Shown piece by piece: positions 58 to 20,623 of a stretch of 46,730 bases of DNA; positions within the stretch are counted from its first letter, which is position 1; each line of letters begins with the position of its first letter. Both the position numbers and the translations under genes were made by a program. The notes beneath the pieces were generated by a model that worked only from the letters and a program-made list of their open reading frames with translations, was not told the origin of the DNA and ran no database searches. Location of the stretch: assembly GCA_013349495.1 (NCBI GenBank), contig DUZK01000002.1, positions 1 to 46,730 of the forward strand, given 5' to 3'. The DNA is from Deltaproteobacteria bacterium (GTDB taxonomy: Bacteria; Desulfobacterota; Desulfobacteria; Desulfobacterales; SURF-15).

Positions 58-954
58 TCAGATAATTTTTTTCATAACTGGAGCTTTATAGATAACCGCG
101 TTTGTTTTTTCTATTAAGATTGAAAATAAACCATTTTCAATAATTGATTCTGATAAAATAAAATCTATAGGTTCATCAATATCGACAGAAATAATATTAA
201 AAAAAGTTCTGTCCCCGTTATTAGATGTAACCCCTACTACTCTGGCATCAGATGTGTCACCAAATAAACAGTTAAATTTATTTGGAATCAATCTTGAATA
301 GTCTGCCCAGAACACTTTATCCTTAGAAGATTCAACAATATTTTTGGTAAATCTCACCCATTGAGCGCTTATTGACATTAAATTTCTGAATATGAGAGGT
401 TTGGGATATATGTATTCATCGAGATCAATATCGTTATACAATGGTATTATTGTATTCGTGTCTTCAGATAATATGAAGCATCGTTTAGGGTGTGATCGAT
501 GATTAGCAAGTTGTATACTCATAACCGCTCCCACTTTTCGGGTTCCTTCAATAAGAACTCGAATAACTGTATCGATGGAACCAGGATACCTAAAGGGAGA
601 AGTAGGTAATAAGATAACAATTATATCCACTCTCCAATTTAATACATCTTCATAGTATTGTATTACGTTTGAGATAACATCATCCAAACTTGATTTATCT
701 TGACTCAAATGTTTTGGCCGGAGAAATGGTACTTCTGCCCCGAGATTTCTCGAAATATTTGCTATTTCAGGATCTTCTGTAGAAACCATTATTCTAGATA
801 AAAACTCCGAGTTGAGTGCAGATTGAATTGTGTAGCTCACTAGTGGTATTCCGCACAAAAGTTTTTTATTTTTGGATTTAACACCTTTTGAGTTTCCCCG
901 TGCAGGGATAATTCCTAATATATGAAGTTTTTTGATGAGGCTTGTATCAACCAT
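58..954 (-). CDS. Acylneuraminate/nonulosonate cytidylyltransferase (CMP-NulO synthetase; NeuA/LegF/PseF type)
   Basis: 298-aa ORF. N-terminal IIPARGNSKGVKSKN motif is typical of CMP-sialic-acid/KDO-type cytidylyltransferases. Last gene of the co-directional minus-strand cluster. Clearly AT-rich: one hand-counted 60-nt line (121-180) has 13 G+C. Confidence 0.75.
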   Translation of the reverse strand: MVDTSLIKKLHILGIIPARGNSKGVKSKNKKLLCGIPLVSYTIQSALNSEFLSRIMVSTEDPEIANISRNLGAEVPFLRPKHLSQDKSSLDDVISNVIQYYEDVLNWRVDIIVILLPTSPFRYPGSIDTVIRVLIEGTRKVGAVMSIQLANHRSHPKRCFILSEDTNTIIPLYNDIDLDEYIYPKPLIFRNLMSISAQWVRFTKNIVESSKDKVFWADYSRLIPNKFNCLFGDTSDARVVGVTSNNGDRTFFNIISVDIDEPIDFILSESIIENGLFSILIEKTNAVIYKAPVMKKII

Positions 955-972
955 AACTATTTTTTGAAGTAT

Positions 973-2364
973 CTATATGTTCTTGTGGAATCCTTTGGTT
1001 TTATCAGCAATTTGTCTAAACTGGTTCTGGATATATCCGACGAATTCGTCTCTTTCGGACAGTGGGACGTCCCGGGAGAAAAAAAAGGCCGGATTCCCCT
1101 GGTGATAATTCTCCCAATCCGTTTGATCCTGCATTATCAAGCCTGCGTTTTGAAACTCGATCATAAGCTTGGTTCCTGGGAGTGGAACCGGAATGTTATA
1201 TTGAAGATCGTCAAGGGCCAATGCCTCGGCAAATTTCAGTGTTTCCTCTATATCTTCCTTTGATTCCCATGGAAAACCGTACATAAAAAAACCACCGACG
1301 TTAAGGCCGGATTTTTTCAACAGTGCGACTTTTTCTCTGATCAAATCGGTAGTGATACCTTTCTGCAATTTTGATAAAATTTTGGAACTCCCGGATTCGA
1401 TCCCAACCCATATGTCTGTACACCCGGCTTCCCGCATTGCCTCTGCCATAGTGGCGGTGAGCATGTCGACCCGACTCATGCACCACCAATGGATATCGAG
1501 ACGCCTTTGCATGAGAAGGTCACAGAACTGAAGCACATAGTCTTTCCGCTGCGTAAAATTATCGTCCAAAAATTTAAAGTAAGTTGTCCCATACTCCCTT
1601 TGAATATGTTCTATTTCGTTAACAATGCTCTCAGGTGTCCGAAACCTGACTCGACCATTATAGATTTTGGGGGAAGAACAATATATGCAATGAAAAGCGC
1701 AACCGCGAGAAGAGATCATAAAACCGAAATCGATTGCCCTGTATTTCTCAATATTATAAAGCGTGCTTCTATCAGGAGGCGGTATGTCGGACAAAGATTT
1801 TATTATGTTTCGATCGGGGTTATGATGAACAACAGAATCGGTTCGAAATGTCAGACCGTGGATGTGAAAAAATTCTTGTCTATCAAATCCATTGAGCAGT
1901 TCCGTAAAAGTGGTTTCGCCTTCACCTCTGACCACAAAATCCACATTTTCGTTGTTGATGACATCCTGATACATAAGGGTCGGGTGGGCGCCGCCGAATA
2001 CAATCGGAACATTCGGATTCCACTCTTTTGCAATTGCGGCGATATTTAATGCAGACCGAAGACTTGCGGTCATTGCTGTTATTCCGATGATATCGGGATT
2101 GACTTCGATAATGACATTTTTGATTTCCTCCCAGATGCTTTCTTGTTCGTCAAAAAGAGCGGTTAGATATTTATTATGTCTCTGGGTGAAATGGTAGTTT
2201 TGAAGTATCGTATGTTCTTGATCACAGAAGTCGGCATTATAGACAACCGGTTCATGGCCGTGTATTTTAACAACTGCGGCGATTTGGCAAAGGCCGATGG
2301 GGGCATAGTTCATCGCACCTCCGAACAACCGCATCCAGGGAGGATAAATGAGCAATGCTTTCAT
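973..2364 (-). CDS. Cobalamin-binding (class B) radical SAM enzyme
   Basis: N-terminal B12-binding-like Rossmann region (MKALLIYPP..., IVFGGAHPT, VVRGEGE) followed by SSRGCAFHCIYC (CxxxCxxC). Start moved to the internal ATG at 2364, which forms an ATGA overlap with the upstream stop (2361-2363); checked in sequence (tcat on + strand). Confidence 0.85.
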   Translation of the reverse strand: MKALLIYPPWMRLFGGAMNYAPIGLCQIAAVVKIHGHEPVVYNADFCDQEHTILQNYHFTQRHNKYLTALFDEQESIWEEIKNVIIEVNPDIIGITAMTASLRSALNIAAIAKEWNPNVPIVFGGAHPTLMYQDVINNENVDFVVRGEGETTFTELLNGFDRQEFFHIHGLTFRTDSVVHHNPDRNIIKSLSDIPPPDRSTLYNIEKYRAIDFGFMISSRGCAFHCIYCSSPKIYNGRVRFRTPESIVNEIEHIQREYGTTYFKFLDDNFTQRKDYVLQFCDLLMQRRLDIHWWCMSRVDMLTATMAEAMREAGCTDIWVGIESGSSKILSKLQKGITTDLIREKVALLKKSGLNVGGFFMYGFPWESKEDIEETLKFAEALALDDLQYNIPVPLPGTKLMIEFQNAGLIMQDQTDWENYHQGNPAFFFSRDVPLSERDEFVGYIQNQFRQIADKTKGFHKNI

Positions 2365-3281
2365 TGGGGGATATATTCCCCGACTCTGAGATTTGCGGTA
2401 TCCATATAACAGTTGATGGTACATCCATCGCAGAAAGGATACCCCCCTTCTTTGGGTTGTATCTCTCGAACGATCTCACTGTTGTAGGTATCTGCAATGC
2501 AGCCATCAATAGGTACTCGTTTTGTCGCTTTATGATAGCATGGAAGAAGTAGATAGCCGTCCGGAGATATAACGATGTTTCTCGATATTGCCCGGCACCG
2601 GGGGGTATTTGTTTTGTTGCCACCGTCCAAAATCAGGGATATCTGTCCCTGGTTGACGTAGACGGAATTGTGGCGCGCAAAGTCCAAGAGGCGATTGATG
2701 GACTGCACCGTGAACCGTTCATTTTTGAAATATGAAAAAACCGGATTGATATTCATCTCACAACCTATCTGCTTTGCAAGGGCATAGAGGTCGGGCAATT
2801 CATCAATGTTGTCCTCATCGACTGTCACCAGAAGTGACATCTTCTGCCCTGACTGTTTTGCGGTTTCAATCCCCATGAGTACCTTGTCGAGCTCATCCAC
2901 ACCTCTTCGTTGCCGGTACTTTTTATGATCGAGTGTGTCTATTGAGAAGTTTATGCAGTCGACTACACCATTGATTGATTTTGAATACTCGGCATACAAT
3001 ATCCCGTTGGTGGCAAATACCGTTGGAAAGCCGAGGGCCTTTGCATGTTTGAGTATTTCAGGGAATCCTTCCTTAAGCAGCGGCTCACCACCCGTGAAAT
3101 CTATAAACTGAATACCCATTTCTTTCAGTTGCCCCATGTGAGCTTTAATCGTCTCAATGGAAGACTCTTTATCTTCAGTTGCAGACTGCCAGATGTTACA
3201 ATACGTACACCTGGAGTTGCATCGGTAGGTTAGATAATAATAGCAGCGATTTGGGTGAAGCATTTTACGATTACTGCTCAT
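2361..3281 (-). CDS. Radical SAM enzyme with C-terminal Cys-rich twitch/SPASM-like extension
   Basis: YRCNSRCTYCNIW (CxxxCxxC). C-terminal CRAISRNIVISPDGYLLLPC and FCDGCTINC cysteine clusters. Confidence 0.8.
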   Translation of the reverse strand: MSSNRKMLHPNRCYYYLTYRCNSRCTYCNIWQSATEDKESSIETIKAHMGQLKEMGIQFIDFTGGEPLLKEGFPEILKHAKALGFPTVFATNGILYAEYSKSINGVVDCINFSIDTLDHKKYRQRRGVDELDKVLMGIETAKQSGQKMSLLVTVDEDNIDELPDLYALAKQIGCEMNINPVFSYFKNERFTVQSINRLLDFARHNSVYVNQGQISLILDGGNKTNTPRCRAISRNIVISPDGYLLLPCYHKATKRVPIDGCIADTYNSEIVREIQPKEGGYPFCDGCTINCYMDTANLRVGEYIPQ

Positions 3282-3285: not shown

Positions 3286-4134
3286 TTAAAATATAAGTAT
3301 CCTTTCCTCTATCGCTGTTTTCCAGATATAAAGCCGGGTGAGGGCAGCCCTTAAATAGAGGATCGGCAACATTAATAGGTCCTCGAGCCTGCGTATTTTG
3401 TACCGAAAAAATATCATGGGAAAGATTGCATCCAGAAGGAGTCGGGGTAGGGCGATTCGCCAGACCAGCGCAGAACGGTCGTTGTATTCCTTCACAAATC
3501 TGACCGTATATTTAGCCCTTTTGGCATTGTTTAACAGACTTTTGACTGTCCATTTAACATGTTGATGATACACAAGCATTGACGGATTGAACAGCAACTT
3601 GCCTTTTTTCATAACCCGGAACGCCAAATCCCTATCCTCTAAGGCATGATTGTATCTGCGCCTGAAGCCCCCAACATCTTCAAACACATCCCGGCGATAT
3701 GCCATGTTACAGCAGCAATACTGCTTGCCTTCCGGGATCTCGAAATATCTGTCCGACAACGTGGGAGATTGTATCTCATAAAGCGTTCTGCCTTCGACTC
3801 CCATGCAGTTGTTGGTTTCAAAAACCGTTACGCCCTGCATGAGCCAATCTGATTCGGGGATACAGTCCGCATCCGTAAAGAATACATATTCGCCGGAGAC
3901 GTTTGTAAGGCCGATGTTTCTCGCCCTGGAAACGCCGAGATTCTTTTTATTTCTTATAAGCTTGATTCTCTTGTCATTGAATTTTTTGACTGCTGCTGAA
4001 GTATGATCATCAGAGCCGTCATCGACGACTATCAGTTTAAAATCATCAAAGGATTGCTTAAGGATGGCTTCAATAGACCTCGATATTGTTTTAGCCTCAT
4101 TATACGCTATGACGATTACACTTATGGCCGGCAA
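3286..4134 (-). CDS. Family 2 glycosyltransferase
   Basis: N-terminal ISVIVIAYNEAKTISRSIEAILKQSFDDFKLIVVDDGSDDHT and a DAD motif (FTDADCIP), typical of the GT2/GT-A fold. Confidence 0.85.
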   Translation of the reverse strand: MPAISVIVIAYNEAKTISRSIEAILKQSFDDFKLIVVDDGSDDHTSAAVKKFNDKRIKLIRNKKNLGVSRARNIGLTNVSGEYVFFTDADCIPESDWLMQGVTVFETNNCMGVEGRTLYEIQSPTLSDRYFEIPEGKQYCCCNMAYRRDVFEDVGGFRRRYNHALEDRDLAFRVMKKGKLLFNPSMLVYHQHVKWTVKSLLNNAKRAKYTVRFVKEYNDRSALVWRIALPRLLLDAIFPMIFFRYKIRRLEDLLMLPILYLRAALTRLYIWKTAIEERILIF

Positions 4135-4156: not shown

Positions 4157-5149
4157 TTATTTGGATCTATTGTTGAGCTTTGGATTTAAAAAACATGCGT
4201 GGGTGCATGCACAGTTTTGCTTTTGCTTTCTTACTTCTTCAGAAAGGGGCGAATCCCAAATACGACTGAAGTTGTAATCATTGAGCCTGACATTTCCGAC
4301 GGCTTTGGTTAATTCGCACAATCGAACCCGGCCATCAGCCTCAAGAACCCCTATCTCTTCTCCGGCTGCGCATAAAAAAGGCATTTTCTCTGTCTTCAGG
4401 ATGAATTCGTATGCCCGGTTCAGGTCGTCGAGGCGATAAAGCGCCTCTTTTTTAACCTGGTTTGAAAATTTGCTTTTTTCCCAGTATTGAATGGCCCGCG
4501 GCCTCAAACAGTTGGCAAGCTCCCTCCAATCATCGCCTGAAGGCGGGAAGAGGTCGGCGTCTTTGGGTGTACCGCGGATCGGAGAGGGACCATGGTCATC
4601 CACATCAAGCTCTTCCCAGATGAAGTTCGAAAGGTCTTTGATCTCCGGGTAGTTTCGGGTTGAAACCACCGTTGTGATATAGGTTCTTAAGCCATTATAT
4701 CTTTTCTTAAACTTATTAAGTCCTGAAACGGTTTCCATAATGGATCTGAAACTACCGTTTTTGCCTTTCATCCCATCATGAGTCTTTTCAAGACCATCCA
4801 GAGATAAAACCGTCACCAGCTCAATGTCATCGCAAAAAGAAAGAACCTGTTCGATCCTCTCAACTGTCCGTTCGGGAACGATCCCGTTTGATGGGAGAAT
4901 AAACTTTCTGACGCCGTTATTGATGTAAAAAATATGGCAAATCTCTGCGAGGTCTTTGCGGAGTGTCGGCTCTCCGCCCGAGAGGTATAGCCTGCTCAAC
5001 TTCCCAAGGGAGCTTGAAATCCGTTCTATCTCGGCGAGATCCATTTCGTGCCGGCCGTTATGCAACTCACGAAAGTAGAAACAGGTGGAACAGAGGAGGT
5101 CACATCGTGACGTAACAAAGAATATCAGTTCGCTTATGGGCATGTTCAT
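4157..5149 (-). CDS. Radical SAM enzyme, SPASM/twitch type
   Basis: SRCDLLCSTCFY (CxxxCxxC). C-terminal CAAGEEIGVLEADGRVRLC (C-x12-G-x4-C) plus CACTHAC. Confidence 0.8.
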   Translation of the reverse strand: MNMPISELIFFVTSRCDLLCSTCFYFRELHNGRHEMDLAEIERISSSLGKLSRLYLSGGEPTLRKDLAEICHIFYINNGVRKFILPSNGIVPERTVERIEQVLSFCDDIELVTVLSLDGLEKTHDGMKGKNGSFRSIMETVSGLNKFKKRYNGLRTYITTVVSTRNYPEIKDLSNFIWEELDVDDHGPSPIRGTPKDADLFPPSGDDWRELANCLRPRAIQYWEKSKFSNQVKKEALYRLDDLNRAYEFILKTEKMPFLCAAGEEIGVLEADGRVRLCELTKAVGNVRLNDYNFSRIWDSPLSEEVRKQKQNCACTHACFLNPKLNNRSK

Positions 5150-5181: not shown

Positions 5182-6000
5182 TTAAGCCTTGGCAGTAATA
5201 ACCATGTGCCAGCCGAGTTTACCTTCCAGCCAAGAAAAGACTCTCGGTGATAAGGTCCGATAGAGAAACCTCGGCACATATCTCTTTTTCTTGTATTCCG
5301 GCTCCCGCCATTTGTATATGTAGTACTTCTTGATTTCCATTGTTTGGTAGTTAGCGAACAGCGTTCGGCATACACGATTGGTGTACGCTTTGATCAATGG
5401 GCTGCCGGGGTTGGCTTCGGAATGTTGGCCAAGAACATCTATAGGAGAACAATGGAGCAATTCGCCCTTGAGGATGCCTTTTTTAAAGAGAATGTCATAG
5501 AGGTATTTTACCGACCATTTATTGTAGAGCATAATAATAGCGGTACCGCCTGGGCGTAGAACTCGGCGGATTTCCTCGATAGCCACATCAGTGCGAGGAA
5601 CGCTTAACAGAACGCCGAAGGAGTAAACAACGTCGAAACTGTTATCCTTAAATGGGAGCCTTTCCGCATCGGCGTTGCACAACCTATCCACCAGACCATA
5701 AAGTCGCAGTCTTTTCCGGGTCATCTGAACCGCCTTAGCGGTCAGATCTATGCCGATCGTTATGGCACCGTTGGCAGCGAAATGGCGGTGGTCGGTGCCC
5801 AGACCGACCCCGATCTCCAGAACCTTTTTGCCTTTATGGCGTGTGAATTGCGCCACTTCGTGGATGTGGGGCTCAACAAAATATCGATGCTCCTCAACTT
5901 CTTTGAAAAATTTTTTACTCCCTTTTGGCGCGAATGAATGGGTCCAACCGCAGGGGACATCGTTCCAATATTCCTGTATTTTTTCCTTCAGTTCATGCAT
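5182..6000 (-). CDS. Class I SAM-dependent methyltransferase
   Basis: Motif I VLEIGVGLGTD, acidic loop GIDLT, FDVVYSFGVL, LRPGGTAIIM. Overlaps the upstream gene by 8 nt. Confidence 0.85.
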   Translation of the reverse strand: MHELKEKIQEYWNDVPCGWTHSFAPKGSKKFFKEVEEHRYFVEPHIHEVAQFTRHKGKKVLEIGVGLGTDHRHFAANGAITIGIDLTAKAVQMTRKRLRLYGLVDRLCNADAERLPFKDNSFDVVYSFGVLLSVPRTDVAIEEIRRVLRPGGTAIIMLYNKWSVKYLYDILFKKGILKGELLHCSPIDVLGQHSEANPGSPLIKAYTNRVCRTLFANYQTMEIKKYYIYKWREPEYKKKRYVPRFLYRTLSPRVFSWLEGKLGWHMVITAKA

Positions 6001-12384: not shown

Positions 12385-13341
12385 CTAAAGAGACCTGTAA
12401 ATTTCAAACAATAAATCAAGCACACAATTCTCGGTCCAATAGTTCTCCATATATATCCTGCTTTCATGGCCGATATGCTTTCTCTGCTCCTCATCCGCTG
12501 TAAGATTTTTAAGACTATATCTGAGTTCATTACGGTTTCTGGCAATGATCCAGGGCAGGTGATTAACACCGGTGAACTCTTTAATGTGCCTGATATTCCA
12601 CTCATCAAGCCCGGCAATTACCGGTTTGCCTTGGCTGAGCGATTCCAATGAAGAGACTCCGTAATAGCCTTGCATGTGATCGAAGATGATGTGACAATTA
12701 TTTTTTTGCCGAAGACATTCCCGGTAGGCGGTATTTTCAATAATATCGAGTGAGACTTTCACCGCCGGGTCTTTTCCCTGAAGTTCGGCTACGGCTCCCT
12801 CAAGATCCTTTGTATTTTTAAGATCTTTTCGGGTGACCGATTGTCCGATCCGCACCGGTTCGGAAGCGGAGGAGGCTTTGGGAAGAAGCATGTGATCGTA
12901 GATCGGAACCAAATTCGGTTGCCACTTTGCCTCAGGCAACAGCCGGAGCAAATCGGGTGTGCTCACCAATACCTTTCGCTTTAATCTTCGATACTTCTCC
13001 TGATATTTTTTCGGATGAGATCTGAAATCCGGATGACCATGGTGGTGGTGGAGTATTGCTTTATTTTTGATGTAGTCTTTTACGCTAATGGTTCCGAGGG
13101 ATAAAGATTCATCCGATAGGATGTGGAAGTGGAAGATATCGGCCGCACGGAGTAACACAGCAATTTCGTCAAATCCGGATCCATTGAGATCCGGTACGTG
13201 GAGGTCTTTCTCAAAATCAAAATTATACCGTGTTGTTTTCGTAATCAGGCGGCAAGAGTGATCAGTATAACGGTTGATGGCATTGGTGAAAGCAATGCCC
13301 ATACCCGCCGGGTCATTTTCGGTGATCATTAGAATGTTCAT
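12385..13341 (-). CDS. Putative GT-B-fold glycosyltransferase (possible nonulosonate transferase)
   Basis: 318-aa ORF directly downstream of the NeuB-like gene. The C-terminal segment IIFDHMQGYYGVSSLESLSQGKPVIAG resembles the nucleotide-sugar binding region of GT1/GT4-type enzymes. Assignment rests on weak motif similarity only. Confidence 0.5.
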   Translation of the reverse strand: MNILMITENDPAGMGIAFTNAINRYTDHSCRLITKTTRYNFDFEKDLHVPDLNGSGFDEIAVLLRAADIFHFHILSDESLSLGTISVKDYIKNKAILHHHHGHPDFRSHPKKYQEKYRRLKRKVLVSTPDLLRLLPEAKWQPNLVPIYDHMLLPKASSASEPVRIGQSVTRKDLKNTKDLEGAVAELQGKDPAVKVSLDIIENTAYRECLRQKNNCHIIFDHMQGYYGVSSLESLSQGKPVIAGLDEWNIRHIKEFTGVNHLPWIIARNRNELRYSLKNLTADEEQRKHIGHESRIYMENYWTENCVLDLLFEIYRSL

Positions 13342-13360: not shown

Positions 13361-15241
13361 TCACAGGTCATAGTTTCGGAGTTTTGACAAAGCCTCGACA
13401 AACCCCTTACCCTTATGGAGGTGGCCCCTCCAGATTTCAGGCACCCACGATCCCTCGTAATCGGCAAATAGCGGCATAATTTTTTCAAAATCGATATCCC
13501 CTTCACCGATTTGAACGCCTTCACCATCCAGACCGTAGGCGTCGGCAAAGTGGATGTGATGGATAAAAGGTTTGACCGTTTGGATAAATTCTTCGAGATC
13601 TTTCTCCTTTGCGTTACAGAACAGGGCGGCATGGGAAAGATCCAGACAGATACCCGTTCCGGTTTCCTCCCAAAAGGATTTTATCTCGTCAGGGGCCATG
13701 AAATAGTTGCCCTTCCACTGCCCCCCGAAATACCAGGGGTAGGGGGGGAGGTTTTCCAAAATGAGTTCGGTTTGTTTCTGATCGATATCTTGAAGGGAAC
13801 GCATCAGGGCTTTTAACAAAAGGGTTTTATTCAATTTTGAATTCAAGCTCATGGCTCCCGGGTGGATAATTACCTTGGGTTGCCCATGAAAGTGGCGGGC
13901 GAGAATCATTGTGAGATCGATACTCTTTTGCACCAAGTCTATGGAAGCCTTTCTGATTTCCTCACTTCCGCTGCAGATATCCATGAGTCGATCACCGATA
14001 TATTCGGGGGCATGGACGATTAATTCCTGCAGGTTTTGGCCGTTCTGTTCGAACTTGAGTTGAAGATCTCTTTCAGTCAAATGAAATTCGATCACTTTGG
14101 GATTATACAAAAGCATTTCTTGCAGATCAGTGAACCGGGAGATGAGCCCCCACCGGCTGCGAAAGGAGTTGGAGAAATCCGATATTTTTTTCCCAGTCAG
14201 ATCCTCTTCGAGGAAATATTCCCCCTTTTGGATATCTCGGTAGAGCCGCTTTCCGATAAGTTCGTCCCTTCTGCTCGGGGACAGGCCTTTACCCGGCCCT
14301 TGAACCCTTAATAAATCACCATTGATGATGGTTCCCGCTTTAATATCATCGGCGGCGATCAGGCTTTTACCAAACAATTCTCGATTAAGAATTTCTCCTC
14401 TCAGAAGAAATCTATTCGCCTTACCCATGGCCTGGTCAGCCACCCGAATGTCTCGAACCATTCGCTTCAATTCAAAGGATTCCAAACTTATTTTGTGATC
14501 CGGCCCCCGCATTTTTTTGTCCAGGGTGATATGCTTTTCGATGATGCTGGCACCCATGGAAGCCGCCACCAGTGGAATCGTGATACCGATATCATGGCCC
14601 GAGTAACCCACCGGGCAACCGAATCTGCAAAGACGGTTGATCATTTTTAAATTCACTTCCCGGGGGTAGACCGGATAGGCGCTTCGACAGTGGAGCAGCG
14701 CAAAGGAAGCATCTAAGTTTTTTAATAAATGAACGGCTTTTTCTATTTCATCCCAATAAGACATGCCGGTGGATACCAGCATGGGTTTGTTTTGATGCGC
14801 AACATGCTGCAGCAGCTCCAAATTGGTCAAATCTGCGGATGCGATTTTAAATGCATTGATATTCAATTGGGTTAAGAAATCAGCGCTGCGTACATCAAAA
14901 GGCGTACAGAGAAATTCTAGACCCTTATCCTCTGTATAAGATTTCAAATCGAAGTAGTCCGCTTCAGACAATTCCATCTCTTTTAAAATCGGGATCATGT
15001 ATTGAAAGTTCTGCTCATATTTGAGGGTATTTGTCAGGATGTCTTCTTTGTAAAGACTTGGGAGATGGCGCTTTTGAAATTTTACCGCATCCACCTTAGC
15101 CTCCGCCGCAACGTCGATCAGCTGTCTGGCAAGATCCGGATTTCCATTATGGTTGATCCCGATTTCAGCAATGATATAGGTCGGGTGCTCTTTACCGATC
15201 TTTCGATTTCCGATTTGTATGGTTGGAGATGGATTCATCAT
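13361..15241 (-). CDS. Nonulosonate (sialic-acid-like) synthase NeuB + SAF domain fused to a xylose-isomerase-like TIM-barrel domain
   Basis: The N-terminus has IIAEIGINHNGNPDLARQLIDVAAEAKVDAVKFQKR and GYSGHD (NeuB/LegI/PseI family). A SAF-like segment follows (GKSLIAADDIKAGTIINGDLLRVQGPGKG). The C-terminal ~270 aa carry VIIHPG, ILENLP, HHIHFADA, GEGDIDF, typical of the sugar-phosphate isomerase/epimerase (AP endonuclease 2) TIM-barrel fold. Confidence 0.85.
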   Translation of the reverse strand: MMNPSPTIQIGNRKIGKEHPTYIIAEIGINHNGNPDLARQLIDVAAEAKVDAVKFQKRHLPSLYKEDILTNTLKYEQNFQYMIPILKEMELSEADYFDLKSYTEDKGLEFLCTPFDVRSADFLTQLNINAFKIASADLTNLELLQHVAHQNKPMLVSTGMSYWDEIEKAVHLLKNLDASFALLHCRSAYPVYPREVNLKMINRLCRFGCPVGYSGHDIGITIPLVAASMGASIIEKHITLDKKMRGPDHKISLESFELKRMVRDIRVADQAMGKANRFLLRGEILNRELFGKSLIAADDIKAGTIINGDLLRVQGPGKGLSPSRRDELIGKRLYRDIQKGEYFLEEDLTGKKISDFSNSFRSRWGLISRFTDLQEMLLYNPKVIEFHLTERDLQLKFEQNGQNLQELIVHAPEYIGDRLMDICSGSEEIRKASIDLVQKSIDLTMILARHFHGQPKVIIHPGAMSLNSKLNKTLLLKALMRSLQDIDQKQTELILENLPPYPWYFGGQWKGNYFMAPDEIKSFWEETGTGICLDLSHAALFCNAKEKDLEEFIQTVKPFIHHIHFADAYGLDGEGVQIGEGDIDFEKIMPLFADYEGSWVPEIWRGHLHKGKGFVEALSKLRNYDL

Positions 15242-15246: not shown

Positions 15247-15909
15247 TTAAGTGAGTTCCGATAGTTTTTTCACTTTCGTTTTTTTACTGATATATTGTCT
15301 TATGGATTTTTCGATTTCTCTCTGCCGGGCAAATGATGTGATCACCACCGCATCCGGTTGGATTCGTTTGAGTTCTTCAGGGGGTTGAATCAAAAGACCA
15401 TTGAAAGGTTTACCTTGTTTTTGGGGATCGCTGTCCACCACACCGATCATCACCAGTTGAGTTTTTTTAATGGCTGCATGAGCCACCTCGGCCGTTTCCG
15501 CAGCACCGAAGAGGGCGATGGTTCGAATCCCCTCTTCATAATAGCCTCCCAGGATCTTTGCGATTTCCTGCTTGACGGATCCGAAGAGCTGCACGATCTC
15601 CGTGGAATAGGAAAGGAGTGATTCACGCAGAGCCTGATGCCCTTCTCGGGTAAGATGATAGCGTTGTGTCCGATTGGTATTTCCACTTACCGTGATCAGA
15701 CCTTCTCCCTTGAACTGCTTAATGTAGTTGTTCACCATGGAGCTGGACAGATGCGCGTTCTTTCCGATGGTATGCTGGCTGGTATCCGGAGTATCGTGGA
15801 TGGAAAGGAGCACCGAAAACCGCCTGAACTCCTTTGTCGGTGATAAATAGTGAGTACCGAATGGTTTAATCATTTTTCTCAAATCTTTCCGCTGGTGGGA
15901 ACTGTTCAT
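15247..15909 (-). CDS. Winged-helix transcriptional regulator fused to a Rossmann-like (CoA/NAD-binding-like) domain
   Basis: wHTH segment SQHTIGKNAHLSSSMVNNYIKQFKGEGLITVSGNTNRTQRYHLTREG. C-terminal IALFGAAETAEVAHAAI..MIGVVDSDPQKQGKPFNGLLIQP..PDAVVITS resembles the nucleotide-binding modules at the N-termini of NeuD/WbaP-type proteins and Rex. First gene of the operon, 5 nt upstream of the NeuB fusion. Confidence 0.6.
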   Translation of the reverse strand: MNSSHQRKDLRKMIKPFGTHYLSPTKEFRRFSVLLSIHDTPDTSQHTIGKNAHLSSSMVNNYIKQFKGEGLITVSGNTNRTQRYHLTREGHQALRESLLSYSTEIVQLFGSVKQEIAKILGGYYEEGIRTIALFGAAETAEVAHAAIKKTQLVMIGVVDSDPQKQGKPFNGLLIQPPEELKRIQPDAVVITSFARQREIEKSIRQYISKKTKVKKLSELT

Positions 15910-16660: not shown

Positions 16661-18145
16661 ATGAAAGTATCCATTGCCTATCCACCCATGGATGATCATA
16701 AAGGGATTCCGCTCCTTTCCCAAAACCGTCAGTTTCAGTGGTTTCACAACCCCACCTATATCTACCCCGTGGTGCCGGCTTATGCAGCGACGCTGTTAAA
16801 GGAAGACGGATTCGAAGTTACCTGGAACGATGGTATCGCTTCGGAGCAGACGTTTGAGGGCTGGTTTGAGGAAATCAAGCGTCAGCATCCGGATCTCTTG
16901 GTCTTTGAAGTGAAAACGCCGGTCATAAAAAGATTCTGGAAGATCATCGACCGGATCAAAGAAGAATTGTCCGACATCAGGATTGTGTTAATGGGGGATC
17001 ATGTCACAGCCCTTCCGGAAGAATCATTACGCAATTCAAAGGCGGACTATATTTTAATGGGAGGAGATTATGATTTCCTGCTATTAGATCTCTGCTCTGC
17101 GATTCGAAGCAAGACATCGCTTCAGGAATTAGGCTCGGGTTTCTGCTTTAGAACTAACGGGTGCATTATTTCAACGGGGCTGTATCAAACAGGACGAAGC
17201 CTGGATATACTTCCCTATATTGATCGGGAACTGACCCAATACAAACGATATGCAACTCAAAACGGGAACTTCAAATACACTCCAGGCACCTATCAGATGG
17301 CAGGAAGAGACTGCTGGTGGGGGGCCTGTGCTTTCTGCTCGTGGACTACCTTATATCCGGGTAAGACCTATCGAACAGTATCCCCTCAGCGGCATCTGGA
17401 TGAAATCGAGATGCTTGTGGATCAGTATCGGATCAAGGAGATCTTCGACGATGCCGGATGCTTCCCCCGGGGGGACTGGTTGAAAGAATACTGTCGAGGG
17501 TTTTTGGATCGGGGGATCCACAAAAAAGTAACCATGGGATGCAATATGCGAATCGGAGGATTGACCGAGGCGGAATGGCGGTTGCTCGGCAAGTGCAATT
17601 TCCGGTTGGTTTTGATCGGATTGGAATCGGTCAACAACGATACCCTGAAACGATTGAATAAGAACATCCGGGTGGATCAGATTGAAAAGACCTTTCGTAT
17701 GGCCAAAAAGGCCGGGTTGGAACCCCATGTCACCACCATGGTGGGGTATCCGTGGGAAACACGACAAGATGCCATTGAAACTCTCGAATTCACCGGCGAT
17801 CTGTTCAGAAATGGGTTTGTAGACTCTCTTCAGGCGACCATCGTGGTGCCTTATCCGGGGACACCACTGTTTAAGATGGCTCAGGAAAATGGGTGGCTTA
17901 TAACGGAAGACTGGGAGCAGTACGATATGCGAAACAGTGTTTGGAAGTCTCCTATCTCCCAGAAGGAAGTTCTCAGACAGGCACAAAATCTCTACAAGCT
18001 CGCGTTATCACCTGAATTTCTTCTCCGGAAAACCCTTTCCATTCGCTCCTTTGAAGATCTTCGATATTTCGTCCGATCCGGTGTTAAATTTTTAGGGCAC
18101 CTGTTCGATTTTAACGAGAATATAGAGGATCGCGAGTCGCCATAA
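16661..18145 (+). CDS. Cobalamin-binding (class B) radical SAM enzyme with atypical cluster motif spacing
   Basis: N-terminal B12-binding-like domain (VSIAYPP, VLMGDHVTA, ILMGGDYD). Cluster region GRDCWWGACAFCSW is C-x4-C-x2-C; DNA checked (gac tgc tgg tgg ggg gcc tgt gct ttc tgc). ATG at 16661 is preferred over TTG at 16658. Confidence 0.8.
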   Translation: MKVSIAYPPMDDHKGIPLLSQNRQFQWFHNPTYIYPVVPAYAATLLKEDGFEVTWNDGIASEQTFEGWFEEIKRQHPDLLVFEVKTPVIKRFWKIIDRIKEELSDIRIVLMGDHVTALPEESLRNSKADYILMGGDYDFLLLDLCSAIRSKTSLQELGSGFCFRTNGCIISTGLYQTGRSLDILPYIDRELTQYKRYATQNGNFKYTPGTYQMAGRDCWWGACAFCSWTTLYPGKTYRTVSPQRHLDEIEMLVDQYRIKEIFDDAGCFPRGDWLKEYCRGFLDRGIHKKVTMGCNMRIGGLTEAEWRLLGKCNFRLVLIGLESVNNDTLKRLNKNIRVDQIEKTFRMAKKAGLEPHVTTMVGYPWETRQDAIETLEFTGDLFRNGFVDSLQATIVVPYPGTPLFKMAQENGWLITEDWEQYDMRNSVWKSPISQKEVLRQAQNLYKLALSPEFLLRKTLSIRSFEDLRYFVRSGVKFLGHLFDFNENIEDRESP

Positions 18146-18537: not shown

Positions 18538-19557
18538 TCACGAAAAACATTTGCCGCACATTATGTTTGTTGTATCCTTCTCGAGGTGAGCCTTTCGCAA
18601 AGATTTATAGGCCTTGCCATTCCATTGTTTCGCTAAAGAAGAGTTGGAATGTATGGTAAACAAACCATGATATTGAGGATGCATACGTATGTTGCAGGGC
18701 GTAACTGTTCCATTGGCAGAAATAAACATCGTGCTAAAAGGGAAACTGCAATTCCCCAAGCTTCTCTTTGTTTTAATATATTTAACGATAATCCCTTTTG
18801 TTAATAATTTAGTTTGCATTTTTGTGATTATATTTGAAATTTTATGGCGATACAGAAGTTGTTCTTTGATAGCTTGTCGGGCGAGGTCATAGTTAGGTTC
18901 ACCAGGGATATACCAAATCTTGAGGCCGACGATAAGGATATAATCAATCCCCAGTTTTACTGCAAGGTTACCAATTCCTTCTAAATCTTTATAATTCATA
19001 TTACTTAATGTTACATTAAAGCCGAATAAAAAATTCGATCTTCCCTCGTTTCTTTCTTTTAAGAGCAACTGCACTCCTTTAATTATTCGATCGAGATTCA
19101 TCCCGGGCCTGAGTTCGTAGGATAAATCTGCCCGATGTGAATCGATACTGATACTTAAATCTACTATATAATCATGAACAAGGTTTCTAATATTCTGTTT
19201 CGTTAATAAGCTGCCATTTGAAGTTGAAGTTATTTTTTTTATTCCCCTATTTTTGAATTCTTCCAAAATGAGTTCAAGACGTGGATGTAAAAAAGGTTCT
19301 CCCAGTCCCTGCAGATTTACGTATTTCAATTCCGGGAGAGAAGAAAGAATACTTCTTAATTTAGTTGTGGTTATATCCTGGATTTCAGTTTTTCTGTTCC
19401 CCATGCTGTTGGAGCAGAACCTGCACCTGAAGTTGCAGCGGTTGGTGGGTTCTATTTGAATGATTTTAGGAAGCGGAACAGTCAAACTGAGTTTGAATGT
19501 TCTAAGTGTTTGCATCACTTTTATCTTTTGCCACCATCTTGAAGCTGCTCTTAACAT
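18538..19557 (-). CDS. Radical SAM enzyme, SPASM/twitch type (AT-rich gene)
   Basis: PTNRCNFRCRFCS (CxxxCxxC). C-terminal CSFPFSTMFISANGTVTPC (C-x12-G-x4-C) and IMCGKC. The start may be the internal MQTLRTF ATG (19515). Confidence 0.75.
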   Translation of the reverse strand: MLRAASRWWQKIKVMQTLRTFKLSLTVPLPKIIQIEPTNRCNFRCRFCSNSMGNRKTEIQDITTTKLRSILSSLPELKYVNLQGLGEPFLHPRLELILEEFKNRGIKKITSTSNGSLLTKQNIRNLVHDYIVDLSISIDSHRADLSYELRPGMNLDRIIKGVQLLLKERNEGRSNFLFGFNVTLSNMNYKDLEGIGNLAVKLGIDYILIVGLKIWYIPGEPNYDLARQAIKEQLLYRHKISNIITKMQTKLLTKGIIVKYIKTKRSLGNCSFPFSTMFISANGTVTPCNIRMHPQYHGLFTIHSNSSLAKQWNGKAYKSLRKAHLEKDTTNIMCGKCFS

Positions 19558-19864
19558 GCTCGCCTCCGCTTTTGCATAGTGGAATATAAAATGGAGTTTG
19601 TAACTTTGTACTGGTTCAGTGTTCAGTGATGGTAGGTTTCGGTCTCAAGTCAGAATAGTTGATACAGGAATTTTGAATTGAGTAAGTATGAAAATAGTAC
19701 TATTTGAAGATATTAGGGCATTGCAATTGGCCCAAAATTAACGTGCAAGGCGTATGATCTGACAAAAAATGCCGGATTTGTTCGAGACTTCGGGCCGAAG
19801 AGTCAAATTCAGGATGCAGCTAGTTCTTCCATACACAACTATTGATTATATCTCCAAGTAAAAT

Positions 19865-20623
19865 CTACTTACGATAAATTTCGACGACCACTTTAGTAAC
19901 AATTTTAATTCTTAATAACATGTCAAGAAGAATATCCACCTTTTTTTCAATCCGCAAAAACCAAGGAATCAGTTTCGCCAAATTAAATATTCTTAACAAA
20001 TGAAGCCAAGGAGTAATATAAAAATAGTCCTTTCTCAATAATTCTGAAAATATTATTGATAAATATTTTTCATCACTATGATTGAAAAAATCGTGCTTTA
20101 TCTCTTGCCCGGAATCCGATTTAGTAAAAAATTCTATCAAATATTGCCCTTTCAGAGACTCTGCCAAGATAAAACAACCTCCTGACTTTAACACCCTATA
20201 AATATTATCAAAAACACACTTTTTGTCAACTTGCATCAAGGCGTTTTGCACATAAACGATATCAAACACTTCATTTTTGAAACTCAAATTTTCAGCATCC
20301 ATTTGCGCCTTTGAAATATTATCCTTTCTTTCGACACACAAAGCTTGAAAACTTATATCAATTCCTACAATATTTTTATAATTACACTTTCGAAATACTT
20401 TTTCATCATTATTATCTCCGACGCAAATAATCAAAACATCACGACAGATAGGTAAACCAAATCCTCTTAGCATTTCATCTAAAAAATATTGGAAACTCCT
20501 TCCTCTATCTCGGAGCCAATCTACCAATTGAGATTTTTGCTCTCTTCGTCGCTTCCACAACACTTCATAATATTCTTTAAATTTGGTTTTGGTTTTTTCA
20601 CGTTCGCTTTTCATCTGTTTCAA
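19865..20623 (-). CDS. Class I SAM-dependent methyltransferase (AT-rich gene)
   Basis: VLIICVGDNND (motif-I-like), IVGIDIS, FDIVYVQNALMQV, VLKSGGCFILAE. Two hand-counted 60-nt lines (19861-19920 and 20221-20280) have 15 and 20 G+C. Confidence 0.7.
   Translation of the reverse strand: MKQMKSEREKTKTKFKEYYEVLWKRRREQKSQLVDWLRDRGRSFQYFLDEMLRGFGLPICRDVLIICVGDNNDEKVFRKCNYKNIVGIDISFQALCVERKDNISKAQMDAENLSFKNEVFDIVYVQNALMQVDKKCVFDNIYRVLKSGGCFILAESLKGQYLIEFFTKSDSGQEIKHDFFNHSDEKYLSIIFSELLRKDYFYITPWLHLLRIFNLAKLIPWFLRIEKKVDILLDMLLRIKIVTKVVVEIYRK

Follow-up and report, generated by a model that had tools for sequence, protein, structure and literature searches.

A 23-kb island of 19 genes at the left end of the stretch of DNA analysed here (46,730 nucleotides, hereafter the window) is an all-soluble sugar-decoration gene set of an uncultured sulfate-reducer-type bacterium, arranged around a sialic-acid-like sugar synthase. 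We give about an even chance to its being a cytoplasmic protein-glycosylation island, with flagellin as the probable target and with anaerobic radical SAM enzymes (rSAMs) tailoring the sugars. On this reading, given the same even chance, the host would be a Desulfobacterales-type anaerobe and the island chromosomal and devoted entirely to cytoplasmic glycan biosynthesis and tailoring. The earlier note on this DNA, which described a nonulosonate (NulO) locus saturated with rSAMs, is partly supported. It had missed the NeuB::TIM-barrel fusion, its conserved partners, the flagellin/Maf/TPR-GT41 context of related loci, a frameshift in wecB and the mosaic make-up of the island.

Organization of the island

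Fifteen co-directional genes (58 to 15909) overlap or lie no more than 38 nt apart, with the single exception of a 131-nt gap, and 12 island genes are tightly coupled. The translational coupling claimed in the earlier note is confirmed, with overlaps of 4, 8, 10, 23 and 26 nt and an ATGA at 2361-2364. Seven rSAM genes are packed into 20 kb and none lies in the remaining 26 kb of the window, a density above chance. ORF 18174-18488 is the sole unassigned one, and neither homologues nor domains were found for it. Unless stated otherwise, the genes below lie on the minus strand.

The variable part of the island would provide UDP-ManNAc(A). The epimerase gene (wecB, 11126..12363) encodes, as the earlier note had it, a WecB-type enzyme, a non-hydrolysing UDP-GlcNAc 2-epimerase (Epimerase_2), with TIGR00236 scores of 265 and 140 bits for the N- and C-terminal parts and only 71 and 25 for the NeuC model. 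However, a 1-nt frameshift near 11566-11572 splits it into two ORFs (11566-12363 and 11126-11569). The gene is split likewise in L001, a contig of ENA assembly ERZ27247117 that duplicates the island region in another assembly, and it is probably a pseudogene. The NDP-sugar dehydrogenase (DH, 7444..8841; UDP-Glc/GDP-Man dehydrogenase family), closest to UDP-ManNAc dehydrogenases, is intact and carries all three family domains. It scores 179.7 bits with TIGR03026, just under the cut-off of 189.8, and 126 bits with the archaeal UDP-ManNAc dehydrogenase model (cut-off 750).

The variable part also contains two family-2 glycosyltransferases (GT2) and three SAM methyltransferase domains. GT2a (3286..4134; 282 aa; PF00535, 118 bits) has no TM-like segment. 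In MTGT2 (9870..11135; 421 aa), a GT2 domain (PF00535, 106 bits) is fused to a partial methyltransferase domain (PF08241, 32 bits, over profile positions 45-94 only). Both have orthologues in L003, the closest related locus. The class-I SAM-dependent methyltransferases are MTa (5182..6000; 272 aa; PF08241, 80.6 bits), whose gene overlaps that of B12d by 8 nt, and MTb (19865..20623; 252 aa; GC 0.31; PF08241, 49.3 bits). Between the island and recQ, TPRsulf (21230..23248; 672 aa) combines TPR families with a C-terminal sulfotransferase domain (PF13469, 148 bits, residues 434-622), and its orthologue in L003 has the same recQ synteny. It might, as the earlier note suggested, sulfate the product. 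These domain matches, with those of the NeuB synthase and cytidylyltransferase below, bear out the corresponding assignments of the earlier note.

A hydropathy scan of the 19 genes over 23 kb predicted no membrane span in any island protein; DH and MTb each have one borderline hydrophobic window, both being read as soluble, and the others none. Domain search of the window detected no Wzx, Wzy, Wzz, flippase, polymerase, ABC transporter or phosphoglycosyltransferase. This combination fits cytoplasmic protein glycosylation, and the flippase, polymerase and initiating transferase would be missing because the acceptor is a cytoplasmic protein. Alternatively, the genes could serve a polysaccharide of the cell envelope (exopolysaccharide, capsule or LPS O-antigen) that contains a nonulosonate and ManNAcA; the polymerase, the initiating transferase and the flippase or ABC exporter would then be encoded elsewhere or past the left contig end. 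That end cuts the island 57 nt beyond the cytidylyltransferase gene, and L001 stops at the identical place. Envelope loci typically contain WecB, a WecC-like dehydrogenase and GT2 enzymes, and GT2 enzymes more often use lipid-linked or polymeric acceptors, which counts against protein glycosylation. Moreover, the window has no Maf, GT41 or flagellin gene, and Chloroflexota homologues of B12a occur in polysaccharide-looking loci (GT4, GT2, carbamoyltransferase, SDR). Nevertheless, we judge an envelope locus unlikely, given the lack of any convincing membrane protein or export domain in the window and the surroundings of the relatives described below.

Seven radical SAM proteins

The seven rSAM genes reported in the earlier note are all intact, with complete Cys motifs. 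The SAM-cluster domain (PF04055) exceeds its gathering score of 29.5 bits in each. CxxxCxxC is present in six, the exception being B12f (C219-x4-C224-x2-C227). Three have, as claimed, a B12-type domain (PF02310, gathering score 32.1 bits), in each case N-terminal. Two of them are B12a (973..2364; 463 aa; PF04055, 89.0 bits; PF02310, 77.9 bits; C242-x3-C246-x2-C249) and B12d (5993..7312; 439 aa; 91.1 and 68.5 bits; C174/C178/C181), which share 29% identity and have orthologues in L003 (898 and 673 bits, respectively). The third, B12f (16661..18145, plus strand; 494 aa; 58.2 and 37.5 bits), is divergently transcribed. The best NCBIfam match of B12a is ApyD (199 bits, cut-off 750), and its nearest PDB entries are 9CCB (QCMT, 7.5e-27) and AprD4 (6e-25). 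AprD4 is also the nearest entry to B12d (6e-23) and is matched by B12f (4e-11), which scores 143 bits with the HpnJ model (cut-off 577).

The other four had been described as having SPASM- or twitch-like C-termini. Such C-termini are indeed present, but they hold just 4-6 Cys and appear twitch-like rather than full SPASM. PF13186 exceeds its gathering score (21.5 bits) in SPASMc, SPASMe and SPASMg (23.9, 50.9 and 36.2 bits). No Pfam SPASM match was obtained for rSAMb (2361..3281; 306 aa; PF04055, 85.6 bits, plus Fer4_12), which has C21/C25/C28 and six C-terminal Cys (C229, C248, C261, C284, C287, C291). It scores 102 bits with the PTO1314 family (cut-off 306) and weakly matches Tes, SkfB, BlsE and viperin in the PDB. 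SPASMc (4157..5149; 330 aa; PF04055, 38.7 bits), with C16/C20/C23 and a short C-terminus carrying C260-x17-C278, C313, C315 and C319, has SkfB as its sole PDB match (1.6e-5). For SPASMe (8816..9892; 358 aa; 66.8 bits), sequence search found no PDB match and profile search only generic rSAM ones. The invariant Cys of its family are C38/C42/C45 and exactly four C-terminal ones, C274, C292, C332 and C335 (Cx17C...CxxC), consistent with a twitch-like domain that has a single auxiliary cluster. SPASMg (18538..19557; 339 aa; GC 0.37; 59.6 bits), with C41/C45/C48, C270-x17-C288 and C334-x2-C337, weakly matches 9dfu and BtrN.

Pairwise identity among the seven does not exceed 29%, none reaches an NCBIfam curated cut-off, and no close solved relative was found in the PDB for any. 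Hence, NCBIfam, PDB and profile searches assigned none of them, and on this basis the seven rSAMs are placed, as the earlier note anticipated, outside every characterised family. BtrN, DesII and BlsE are among the weak PDB matches, and sugar-acting rSAMs are matched no better than peptide- or cofactor-modifying ones.

The rSAMs might instead build or modify a non-carbohydrate moiety, either an unusual acyl or amino-acid substituent later placed on N5/N7 of the nonulosonate or, in a RiPP-like manner, residues of the acceptor protein. The best-known tasks of SPASM/twitch and class-B rSAMs lie in the maturation of peptides and cofactors, and ApyD, SkfB, PqqE, QCMT and a tungsten-cofactor maturase are among the top NCBIfam/PDB matches. 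Known flagellin nonulosonates carry elaborate N-acyl groups, and in one related locus (L167) AsnB-like, acetyltransferase-like and DegT genes adjoin the core. We regard this as quite improbable, however: all peptide-maturase matches are far below family cut-offs, the window yielded no precursor-peptide-like ORF, protease, exporter or RiPP recognition element, and translational coupling ties the rSAM genes to those of GT2 enzymes, methyltransferases and the sugar dehydrogenase. In the protein-glycosylation reading, the rSAMs would tailor the sugar(s), or substituents on them, by oxygen-independent chemistry, as family precedents suggest. We infer from gene context only that they may act on the nine-carbon sugar.

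The conserved core and its relatives

The core consists of wHTH, the NeuB fusion, unk318 and the cytidylyltransferase, and would most likely follow a non-canonical route to a sialic-acid-like (nonulosonic) sugar, which it would also CMP-activate. The array begins with wHTH (15247..15909), which encodes a regulator with a MarR-like winged helix and a Rossmann-like domain (C2185-like_N / NeuD-N-like). It is followed by NeuBfus (13361..15241; 626 aa), a NeuB-family synthase (PF03102, 267 bits; NeuB equivalog 329, cut-off 399.65) with a SAF domain (PF08666) and a C-terminal xylose-isomerase-like TIM barrel (PF01261, AP_endonuc_2, 70 bits). In the PDB, residues 5-347 match NeuB and PseI and residues 388-592 match MJ1311. 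The fold of the C-domain is nearest to Endo IV and ketose 3-epimerases, and the fusion is kept in 120 of 120 homologues among the matches listed. The barrel, which resembles metal-dependent isomerases/epimerases, may deliver an aldose to NeuB.

Next to it, unk318 (12385..13341; 318 aa) has no Pfam/NCBIfam match but shows about 60% identity over more than 100 homologues. Its AF2 model (pLDDT 92) is closest in Foldseek to MshA, BshA and PimA (TM about 0.7). Hence, where three to four glycosyltransferases had been counted, two GT2 enzymes stand and the third is, by its modelled GT-B (GT4-like) fold, unk318. It may serve as an NDP-sugar hydrolase or as a transferase. CMPtr (58..954; 298 aa; GC 0.33) belongs to the CMP-NulO/CMP-Kdo synthetase family (PF02348, CTP_transf_3, 70.4 bits; PseF model 107.7, cut-off 205.7). 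In agreement with the earlier note, Pfam/NCBIfam searches of the window revealed no hydrolysing epimerase, PseG/LegG-type NDP-sugar hydrolase, 4,6-dehydratase, aminotransferase or N-acetyltransferase. The island also lacks the 4,6-dehydratase-like SDR of most relatives; therefore, the core product may differ or depend on genes elsewhere.

We compared the island with 44 homologous Desulfobacterota-type loci (681 kb) and with versions from distant phyla (464 kb). Cultured organisms with the core include Desulfatiferula olefinivorans, Desulfobacter vibrioformis DSM 8776, Desulfofustis glycolicus DSM 9705, Desulforapulum autotrophicum and Desulfamplus magnetovallimortis. Nearly all of the 44 loci have the wHTH-NeuBfus-unk318 triad, often with the cytidylyltransferase gene directly after it; in nearly all, wHTH immediately precedes either the fusion or an SDR gene that itself stands before the fusion. 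Flagellin, Maf (PF01973) or TPR-GT41 genes occur within 10 kb in 9 of the 28 loci whose upstream flank is complete, and near the core in L005-L007; about two thirds of related loci have none within 10 kb, in a detection that used only a few seed sequences. In other relatives the core adjoins housekeeping genes, and the neighbourhoods inspected showed no export machinery, which argues against an envelope locus. Given this flagellin/Maf/TPR-GT41 context, a cytoplasmic protein is the likeliest acceptor, which the earlier note, while correctly reporting no flippase, polymerase or initiating transferase, had called unknown.

The Desulfobacterota versions are richer in rSAM genes (45 in 681 kb, mean 1.3 per 20 kb, at least one in 28 of 44 loci, 0-3 per related locus) than those from distant phyla (one in 464 kb). 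Yet the seven-enzyme arrangement does not recur. L003, with a NeuB 91% identical and no Maf, GT41 or flagellin gene in its visible part, shares B12a, rSAMb, SPASMc and B12d in a different order. Apart from the duplicate L001, which has B12f and SPASMe, no orthologue of any of the seven was found in the other fetched loci, and none of B12f, SPASMe or SPASMg in L003 either. Judged by orthology, the set is not a conserved unit.

The make-up of the island is a mosaic. CMPtr, SPASMg and MTb have 31-37% GC vs 44-51% elsewhere, and SPASMg and MTb are separate transcription units (gaps of 307-606 nt). Together with the frameshifted wecB, the three compositional outliers suggest that the island may in part be young, unintegrated or in decay. 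It is possible, though somewhat doubtful, that horizontally acquired cassettes were recently put together into a mosaic, now partly decaying, in which the rSAM number reflects accretion rather than one seven-step pathway and only some of the enzymes cooperate. The wecB frameshift in two assemblies, the low-GC genes, the separate units of SPASMg and MTb, the divergent B12f, the partial overlap with L003, the lack of B12f, SPASMe and SPASMg orthologues outside the duplicate L001 and the TA and defence genes inserted in L003 and L166 favour accretion; the seven intact rSAM ORFs and the 12 tightly coupled genes speak against it. Accretion is compatible with protein glycosylation, which it qualifies and does not replace.

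Comparison with known glycosylation systems

In the proposed pathway, the finished glycan would be put on a cytoplasmic protein, most probably flagellin, as relatives suggest. Maf and FlmG-type proteins are the known flagellin nonulosonate transferases (10.1101/2020.06.03.131540, 10.1101/2022.03.25.485807). TPRsulf sits where TPR-GT41-MptE proteins stand in L005, L007, L021 and L030. Nine other metagenomic NulO loci have a B12-rSAM gene immediately after a small Maf-domain gene. B12a homologues with 35-42% identity (Chloroflexota and other metagenome contigs) lie amid GT4, GT2, SDR and DegT genes, each locus holding 2-3 B12-rSAMs.

In our literature search, no paper connected nonulosonic acids or the glycosylation of flagellin with rSAM enzymes, and no homologous locus with a solved product came to light. 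rSAMs known to act on sugars include the C-methyltransferases GenK, GenD1, Fms7 and MoeK5, and AprD4, which does not bind cobalamin (PMC12931638). By family precedent, the single-auxiliary-cluster twitch rSAMs could perform dehydrogenation, epimerisation or decarboxylation. Among solved structures, AprD4 ranks first or second in closeness to B12a, B12d and B12f, and these putative cobalamin binders could, on the same grounds, catalyse C-methylation or an AprD4-like deoxygenation.

Radical SAM genes of the island

The earlier note had claimed seven radical SAM genes in the island (58-20623), and all seven are real, with PF04055 scores of 38.7-91.1 bits against a cut-off of 29.5. The three-cysteine motif for the SAM-binding [4Fe-4S] cluster is complete in each of them, as CxxxCxxC in six. 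In the seventh, B12f (16661-18145), it takes the form of a spacing variant, Cx4Cx2C (C219-x4-C224-x2-C227). B12f is also the sole gene of the island to be read from the plus strand, at a distance of 751 nt from the wHTH regulator gene (15247-15909), from which it diverges.

Attribution of three proteins to the cobalamin class was borne out by PF02310, an N-terminal, Rossmann-like domain found in B12a (973-2364; 77.9 bits), B12d (5993-7312; 68.5 bits) and B12f (37.5 bits) above a cut-off of 32.1. The four proteins described as SPASM- or twitch-like fared unevenly. PF13186 matches SPASMc (4157-5149; 23.9 bits), SPASMe (8816-9892; 50.9 bits) and SPASMg (18538-19557; 36.2 bits; cut-off 21.5), whereas rSAMb (2361-3281) has no SPASM match and carries six cysteines in its C-terminus. 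The full seven-/eight-cysteine SPASM motif, corresponding to two auxiliary [4Fe-4S] clusters, is absent from these proteins, whose short C-terminal domains hold 4-6 cysteines. When SPASMe was aligned with ten homologues of related loci, exactly four C-terminal cysteines were invariant, as Cx17C...CxxC, a single-cluster pattern known from BtrN. Judged from this spacing, the C-termini probably form a twitch domain with one auxiliary cluster rather than a full SPASM domain.

In agreement with the claim that these enzymes lie outside characterised families, none of the seven reaches the cut-off of any NCBIfam radical SAM model. The class-B models stay far below threshold (ApyD, 199 vs 750; BchE, 153 vs 481; HpnJ, 143 vs 578; TIGR04014 (QCMT), 123 vs 360 bits), as do PTO1314 (102 vs 306), the tungsten-cofactor maturase (106 vs 380) and N_Twi_rSAM (80 vs 170). 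Hence, curated cut-offs are not reached for the BchE, HpnJ, HpnR, PhpK, GenK-like, ApyD, QCMT and AprD4 families. For anSME, BtrN, PqqE, MftC, AlbA, SkfB, NirJ/Ahb and the tungsten-cofactor maturases, no cut-off was reached and no close solved relative was found. In single-sequence searches of the PDB, the best solved relative of B12a is 9CCB (E 7.5e-27, residues 130-404), and AprD4 structures match B12a, B12d and B12f with E-values of 6e-25, 6e-23 and 4e-11. The former is QCMT/MgmA, the cobalamin-dependent radical SAM glutamine C-methyltransferase of methyl-coenzyme M reductase, a Csp3 methylase (PMC12931638). AprD4, a top match of all three proteins, does not bind cobalamin (PMC12931638), so that a B12-binding domain alone is no proof of B12 use. 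For the four proteins of twitch type, matches are confined to the radical SAM core and weak (SkfB, Tes, BlsE, viperin, BtrN), with E-values of 1e-5 or weaker by single sequence, or lacking altogether. A profile of the SPASMe family matched SkfB, MoaA, DesII, PqqE, BlsE, SuiB-like proteins, BtrN and anSME without discriminating between them. Placing each protein in a characterised family was thus given up, NCBIfam, single-sequence and profile searches having returned only sub-threshold or generic core matches.

The unusual gene density pointed out in the earlier note is well beyond chance: seven radical SAM genes lie within 20 kb and none in the other 26 kb, and homologous loci average 1.3 per 20 kb. 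Pairwise identity among the seven proteins is at most 29%, which rules out recent duplication as their source and argues for seven separate lineages without recent expansion.

The NeuB fusion, its partner gene and the surrounding island

The predicted NeuB-type synthase (13361-15241) was confirmed by PF03102 (267.5 bits) and SAF (38.1 bits), and its residues 5-347 align to NeuB, SiaC and PseI structures. What had been missed is that this 626-aa protein is a fusion of NeuB, SAF and an AP_endonuc_2 TIM barrel. It stays below the cut-offs of the N-acetylneuraminate and pseudaminate synthase equivalogs, TIGR03569 (329 vs 399.65) and TIGR03586 (237 vs 340.25), and the cytidylyltransferase CMPtr (58-954) likewise stays below that of the PseF equivalog (107.7 vs 205.7). 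The fusion is kept in all 120 homologues among the matches listed, at 61-91% identity. A genome scan with the C-terminal domain only returned 74 loci. Desulfobacterota account for 44 of them (53-73% identity); the other 30 belong to Gemmatimonadota, Planctomycetota, Armatimonadota, Patescibacteria, Acidobacteriota and Kiritimatiellia (31-44% identity). Homologues of the best-conserved island proteins carry the names Desulfobacteraceae, Desulfobacterales or Thermodesulfobacteriota, which points to an anaerobe of Desulfobacterales type as the host. In almost all Desulfobacterota loci the order is the wHTH regulator, sometimes a Gmd/LegB-like SDR, the NeuB fusion and then a 318-aa protein, often directly followed by a 229-236-aa cytidylyltransferase.

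The 318-aa protein, unk318 (12385-13341), keeps about 60% identity over a set of more than 100 homologues. Its predicted fold is a compact, GT4-like GT-B (pLDDT 92), with MshA, BshA and PimA as nearest structures. For the xylose-isomerase-like TIM barrel, fold searches led to endonuclease IV, ketose 3-epimerases and UlaE at the family level only (TM ~0.6), a resolution at which no specific reaction can be assigned; its His, Glu and Asp columns do not vary across a ten-sequence alignment. The gaps that the earlier note had seen relative to canonical pathways held up. No hydrolysing 2-epimerase or NDP-sugar hydrolase (NeuC, LegG, PseG) is recognised, nor are the 4,6-dehydratase, aminotransferase and N-acetyltransferase of the Leg/Pse routes, among the 20 ORFs scanned. 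Relatives carry a Gmd/LegB-like SDR and sometimes DegT. The UDP-sugar hydrolase of pseudaminic acid synthesis, PseG, is itself a GT-B protein, and the fold model makes unk318 a candidate analogue of an NDP-sugar hydrolase. Together, the TIM-barrel domain and unk318 would replace the missing hydrolase/epimerase steps. No paper on a NeuB::TIM-barrel fusion was found in the literature searched, whose coverage is incomplete.

Domain searches also recovered the CMP-NulO synthetase and the three methyltransferase-type domains reported earlier (MTa, 5182-6000; MTGT2, 9870-11135; MTb, 19865-20623). PF08241 aligns to MTGT2 over positions 45-94 only; just the C-terminal half of the fold is kept, and the methyltransferase part of the protein may be degenerate. 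Other assignments stood in part. The glycosyltransferases, among them GT2a (3286-4134), are present, the third being the 318-aa ORF without a Pfam match. The supposed UDP-HexNAc dehydrogenase DH (7444-8841) was found, but its match reaches the family level only. The epimerase gene wecB (11126-12363) is of the non-hydrolysing TIGR00236 type, its N-terminal fragment scoring 265 bits with the wecB model (cut-off 210) and 71 with that of NeuC (cut-off 236), but it is broken into two ORFs where the AT-rich run TATTTATTTATGTGACC (11560-11580) shifts the frame by 1 nt. The same split occurs in a second contig of the region (L001, ENA assembly ERZ27247117); a pseudogene, variation within the population and an assembly error common to both contigs are all conceivable.

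Among the fifteen co-directional genes (58-15909), neighbours either overlap by 4-26 nt or stand no more than 38 nt apart, except at one gap of 131 nt, and this tight spacing suggests translational coupling, as had been proposed. Base composition is less uniform: GC is 0.33 in CMPtr (GC3 0.25), 0.37 in SPASMg and 0.31 in MTb, against 0.44-0.51 in the rest of the island, suggesting that these three genes are recent horizontal acquisitions. In addition, CMPtr is of a 298-aa type that differs from the cytidylyltransferase kept beside the core in relatives, and no relative above 38% identity was found in a metagenome scan. The window makes up an entire metagenome contig. The second contig covers part of it, ends at the same place as its left end and adds no sequence beyond it. 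Overall, the island is a mosaic with accreted tailoring genes.

The 104-aa ORF at 18174-18488, without domains or homologues and lying between convergent gene ends, was treated as non-coding. Rfam revealed no cobalamin or SAM riboswitch or other RNA element within the island, and promoter and terminator predictions in 15.0-23.6 kb show no excess over shuffled sequence. The right-hand 26 kb is ordinary chromosome, with recQ, an LD-carboxypeptidase gene, mreBC with PBP2 and rodA, F1Fo ATP synthase, RNase Y and tyrS. There, Rfam identifies a minus-strand tRNA (26048-26121), 6S RNA upstream of RNase Y (42388-42568) and a 16S rRNA gene (46314-46730), of which the contig contains the first ~400 nt before it ends. 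Toxin-antitoxin and defence-like genes (HEPN/NTase, AbiEii, PDDEXK, a RelB-like HTH) occur in or beside the islands of relatives (L003, 1314-1987; L166, 12647-21158) and, in the window, next to recQ (25607-25963), which fits a recombination-prone variable region.

Related loci and the possible acceptor

The seven-enzyme arrangement, whose recurrence had been in question, is not a conserved unit, and one close relative shares four of the radical SAM genes. This locus (L003/L004), with a 91% identical NeuB and the same recQ synteny, is the only relative with orthologues of B12a, rSAMb, SPASMc, GT2a, B12d and MTGT2, in a changed order and with a WbcJ-like reductase and an intact wecB interposed. 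Orthologues of B12f, SPASMe and SPASMg were found in none of the other fetched loci; the duplicate contig L001 alone carries B12f and SPASMe. Radical SAM genes are all the same common in the Desulfobacterota loci, with 45 in 681 kb and at least one in 28 of 44 loci, and almost absent from those of distant phyla, with one in 464 kb. B12a and B12d belong to a broad B12-type group whose members in Chloroflexota and other metagenome contigs lie in glycan loci with 2-3 such genes each; a homologue search with B12a did not recover its orthologue in L003.

Two further radical SAM families were observed in the fetched loci. A 12-member radical SAM/SPASM family of ~318 aa, absent from the window, recurs in Desulfobacterota NeuB-fusion loci (L012, L013, L015, L025, L027, L029, L031, L032, L035, L038, L039 and L167, 13223-15138); in L167 its gene begins at the final base of the GT4-fold gene. 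In unrelated NulO loci from metagenomes, which encode NeuB, a NeuC-like epimerase and a cytidylyltransferase, a small Maf-domain gene (~345 aa) is immediately followed by a ~500-aa B12-type radical SAM gene (L089, 10840-13419; L091, 7356-9896; L095, 6883-9404; L097, 10812-13605; L098, 11695-13654; L101, 4791-7146; L102, 10735-13403; L152, 7099-9747; L158, 738-3287). Often the pair is adjacent or overlaps; the Maf-domain protein matches the N-terminal half of PF01973 only, and the radical SAM partners form an 11-member cluster of their own. This looks like a conserved two-gene module, of which we found no description.

As for the acceptor, the earlier note had seen no flippase, polymerase or initiating transferase, and no such Pfam domain occurs in the island. 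The hallmarks of a Wzx/Wzy- or ABC-dependent polysaccharide locus, an initiating phosphoglycosyltransferase, a flippase or ABC transporter and a polymerase, were thus not recovered by the Pfam searches. All 19 island proteins read as soluble in a hydropathy scan, with a single borderline TM-like window each in DH and MTb. Because flagellin-type glycosylation is cytoplasmic, these absences are no puzzle for that type of system.

Flagellin genes adjoin the core in L033, L035, L036, L040, L043 and L044, and Maf-domain (PF01973) and/or TPR-GT41 genes, some of them giant fusions, in L005-L007, L021, L023, L030, L031, L037, L040 and L053. The flagellin nonulosonate transferases known so far are Maf and FlmG-type (TPR + GT) proteins (10.1101/2020.06.03.131540, 10.1101/2022.03.25.485807). 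Of the 28 Desulfobacterota loci whose upstream flank is complete, 9 have such a context, a lower bound since detection used few seed sequences, and so do L005-L007. The flagellin genes directly upstream of TPR-GT41 and the NeuB-fusion core in L033 (2163-4628), L035 (2209-4719) and L036 (2170-4635) encode proteins of ~820 aa; these MAGs are labelled Thermodesulfobacteriota (two) and Chloroflexota (one). The 46.7-kb window holds no Maf, GT41 or flagellin gene, so that the acceptor is deduced from relatives only. By analogy with them, the island would belong to the Maf/FlmG-dependent flagellin glycosylation islands, and we hold flagellin to be a possible acceptor, at somewhat under an even chance. 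The conserved core occurs in cultured strains, among them Desulfatiferula olefinivorans, Desulfobacter vibrioformis DSM 8776, Desulfofustis glycolicus DSM 9705, Desulforapulum autotrophicum and Desulfamplus magnetovallimortis, which makes the question directly testable by flagellin mass spectrometry.

Between recQ and the core, at the position of TPR-glycosyltransferases elsewhere, the window and L003 carry orthologous genes for a TPR-sulfotransferase (TPRsulf, 21230-23248; PF13469); TPR-GT41-Maf fusions take this place in other genomes. Sulfation of a protein glycan by TPRsulf is a possibility. A Sulfotransfer_2-like gene is found inside locus L007.

Proposed pathway and comparison with known systems

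In the pathway that we propose, the core would make and CMP-activate a nonulosonate. The dehydrogenase would supply a HexNAc-uronate, in concert with wecB as it was before the frameshift or with an epimerase from another part of the genome, GT2 enzymes would lengthen a short glycan, and the SAM methyltransferases would methylate it at O or N. B12-type radical SAM enzymes could C-methylate unactivated sugar carbons or carry out an AprD4-like deoxygenation. Sugar reactions of twitch-type families are known from BtrN, NeoN and BlsE and, by analogy, the twitch-type enzymes may catalyse sugar oxidation, epimerisation or decarboxylation. TPRsulf may then act on the glycoprotein. A RiPP cluster was set aside as the leading interpretation, since no precursor-like ORF or RiPP accessory domain was found.

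That a glycan is tailored by the radical SAM enzymes we judge about evenly balanced. The complete scheme is more tentative and, taken as a whole, somewhat less likely than not: Desulfobacterota would make an undescribed nonulosonate through the NeuB::isomerase fusion and a GT4-fold partner replacing NeuC/PseG/LegG, radical SAM enzymes would diversify the sugar and short glycan by C-methylation, deoxygenation, oxidation or epimerisation and decarboxylation, and TPR-targeted sulfation would perhaps come last.

By themselves, unannotated radical SAM genes in glycan loci of anaerobes are not astonishing. To our knowledge, nonulosonic-acid glycosylation of flagella and other surface proteins has been described almost exclusively in aerobic or microaerophilic pathogens, where the tailoring enzymes are conventional. 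More than 100 groups of B12-type radical SAM enzymes exist, most of them unexplored, and the characterised sugar-acting ones listed in a review are antibiotic-pathway methylases (PMC12931638). If our reading is right, environmental anaerobes apply radical SAM enzymes, including this large and mostly unexplored class, to nonulosonates, with novel reactions on sugars and definite substrates for orphan families, and enter nonulosonate biosynthesis by a non-canonical route via the fusion and its GT4-fold partner. This would amount to a set of tools, independent of oxygen, for tailoring surface-protein (flagellin) glycans, without a characterised counterpart; the Maf-domain/B12-type pairs of other metagenomic NulO loci would be a wider sign of it. 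The present locus, with seven radical SAM genes, is the extreme case and should serve well as an enzyme source for in vitro studies. No paper linking radical SAM enzymes with nonulosonic, pseudaminic or legionaminic acid or flagellin glycosylation turned up; as the literature searched is incomplete, this is weak evidence of novelty. The locus should interest radical SAM enzymologists and glycobiologists alike.

Overall, the locus would operate as nonulosonate-based flagellin glycosylation islands do, yet departs from the canonical Neu5Ac, Leg and Pse pathways and, in the window, from the Maf/flagellin pattern. With the Neu5Ac (NeuC-NeuB-NeuA), Leg (LegB/C/H/G/I/F) and Pse (PseB/C/H/G/I/F) pathways it shares a predicted PEP-dependent NeuB-family condensation (PF03102) and CTP-dependent activation (PF02348). 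In contrast to them, the NeuB, PseI and PseF cut-offs are missed, the epimerase is WecB-type and broken, and no genes can be recognised for the other steps.

In the pathways to aminoglycoside, nucleoside and phosphoglycolipid antibiotics, radical SAM enzymes act on sugars as C-methyltransferases (GenK, GenD1, Fms7, MoeK5), a diol dehydratase (AprD4), a dehydrogenase (BtrN) or a decarboxylase (BlsE). As in these enzymes and DesII, a B12-like domain precedes the radical SAM core, or the core is followed by a single-cluster twitch domain with Cx17C...CxxC, and genes for sugar nucleotides and glycosyltransferases surround them. All three B12-types have AprD4 among their best matches of solved structure, and BtrN, DesII and BlsE are among the weak ones. 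However, similarity is low (E-values of 1e-5 to 1e-27) and lies mostly over the radical SAM core, no curated threshold is reached, and the setting is that of an anaerobe's primary cell-surface glycosylation rather than an antibiotic cluster. Likewise, QCMT/MgmA (9CCB) comes closest to B12a in sequence among solved structures, but the host here is not a methanogen and B12a stands among glycan genes.

Flagellin O-glycosylation islands with nonulosonic acids and Maf/FlmG transferases are known from Campylobacter, Helicobacter, Aeromonas, Clostridium and Caulobacter. Like them, the present island combines a NeuB-family synthase and CMP-transferase core with hypervariable methyltransferases and extra transferases around it, and it encodes only proteins predicted to be soluble and neither a flippase nor a polymerase; in homologous Desulfobacterota loci the same core has flagellin, PF01973 (Maf) and TPR-GT41 (FlmG-like) genes beside it. 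Unlike them, the window has no Maf, FlmG or flagellin gene and no Pse/Leg dehydratase, aminotransferase, acetyltransferase or hydrolase. Seven radical SAM genes are present here, none having been found reported in described flagellin islands; a TPR-sulfotransferase takes the place of the relatives' TPR-glycosyltransferase, and NeuB carries a TIM-barrel fusion and has a GT4-fold protein as its partner.
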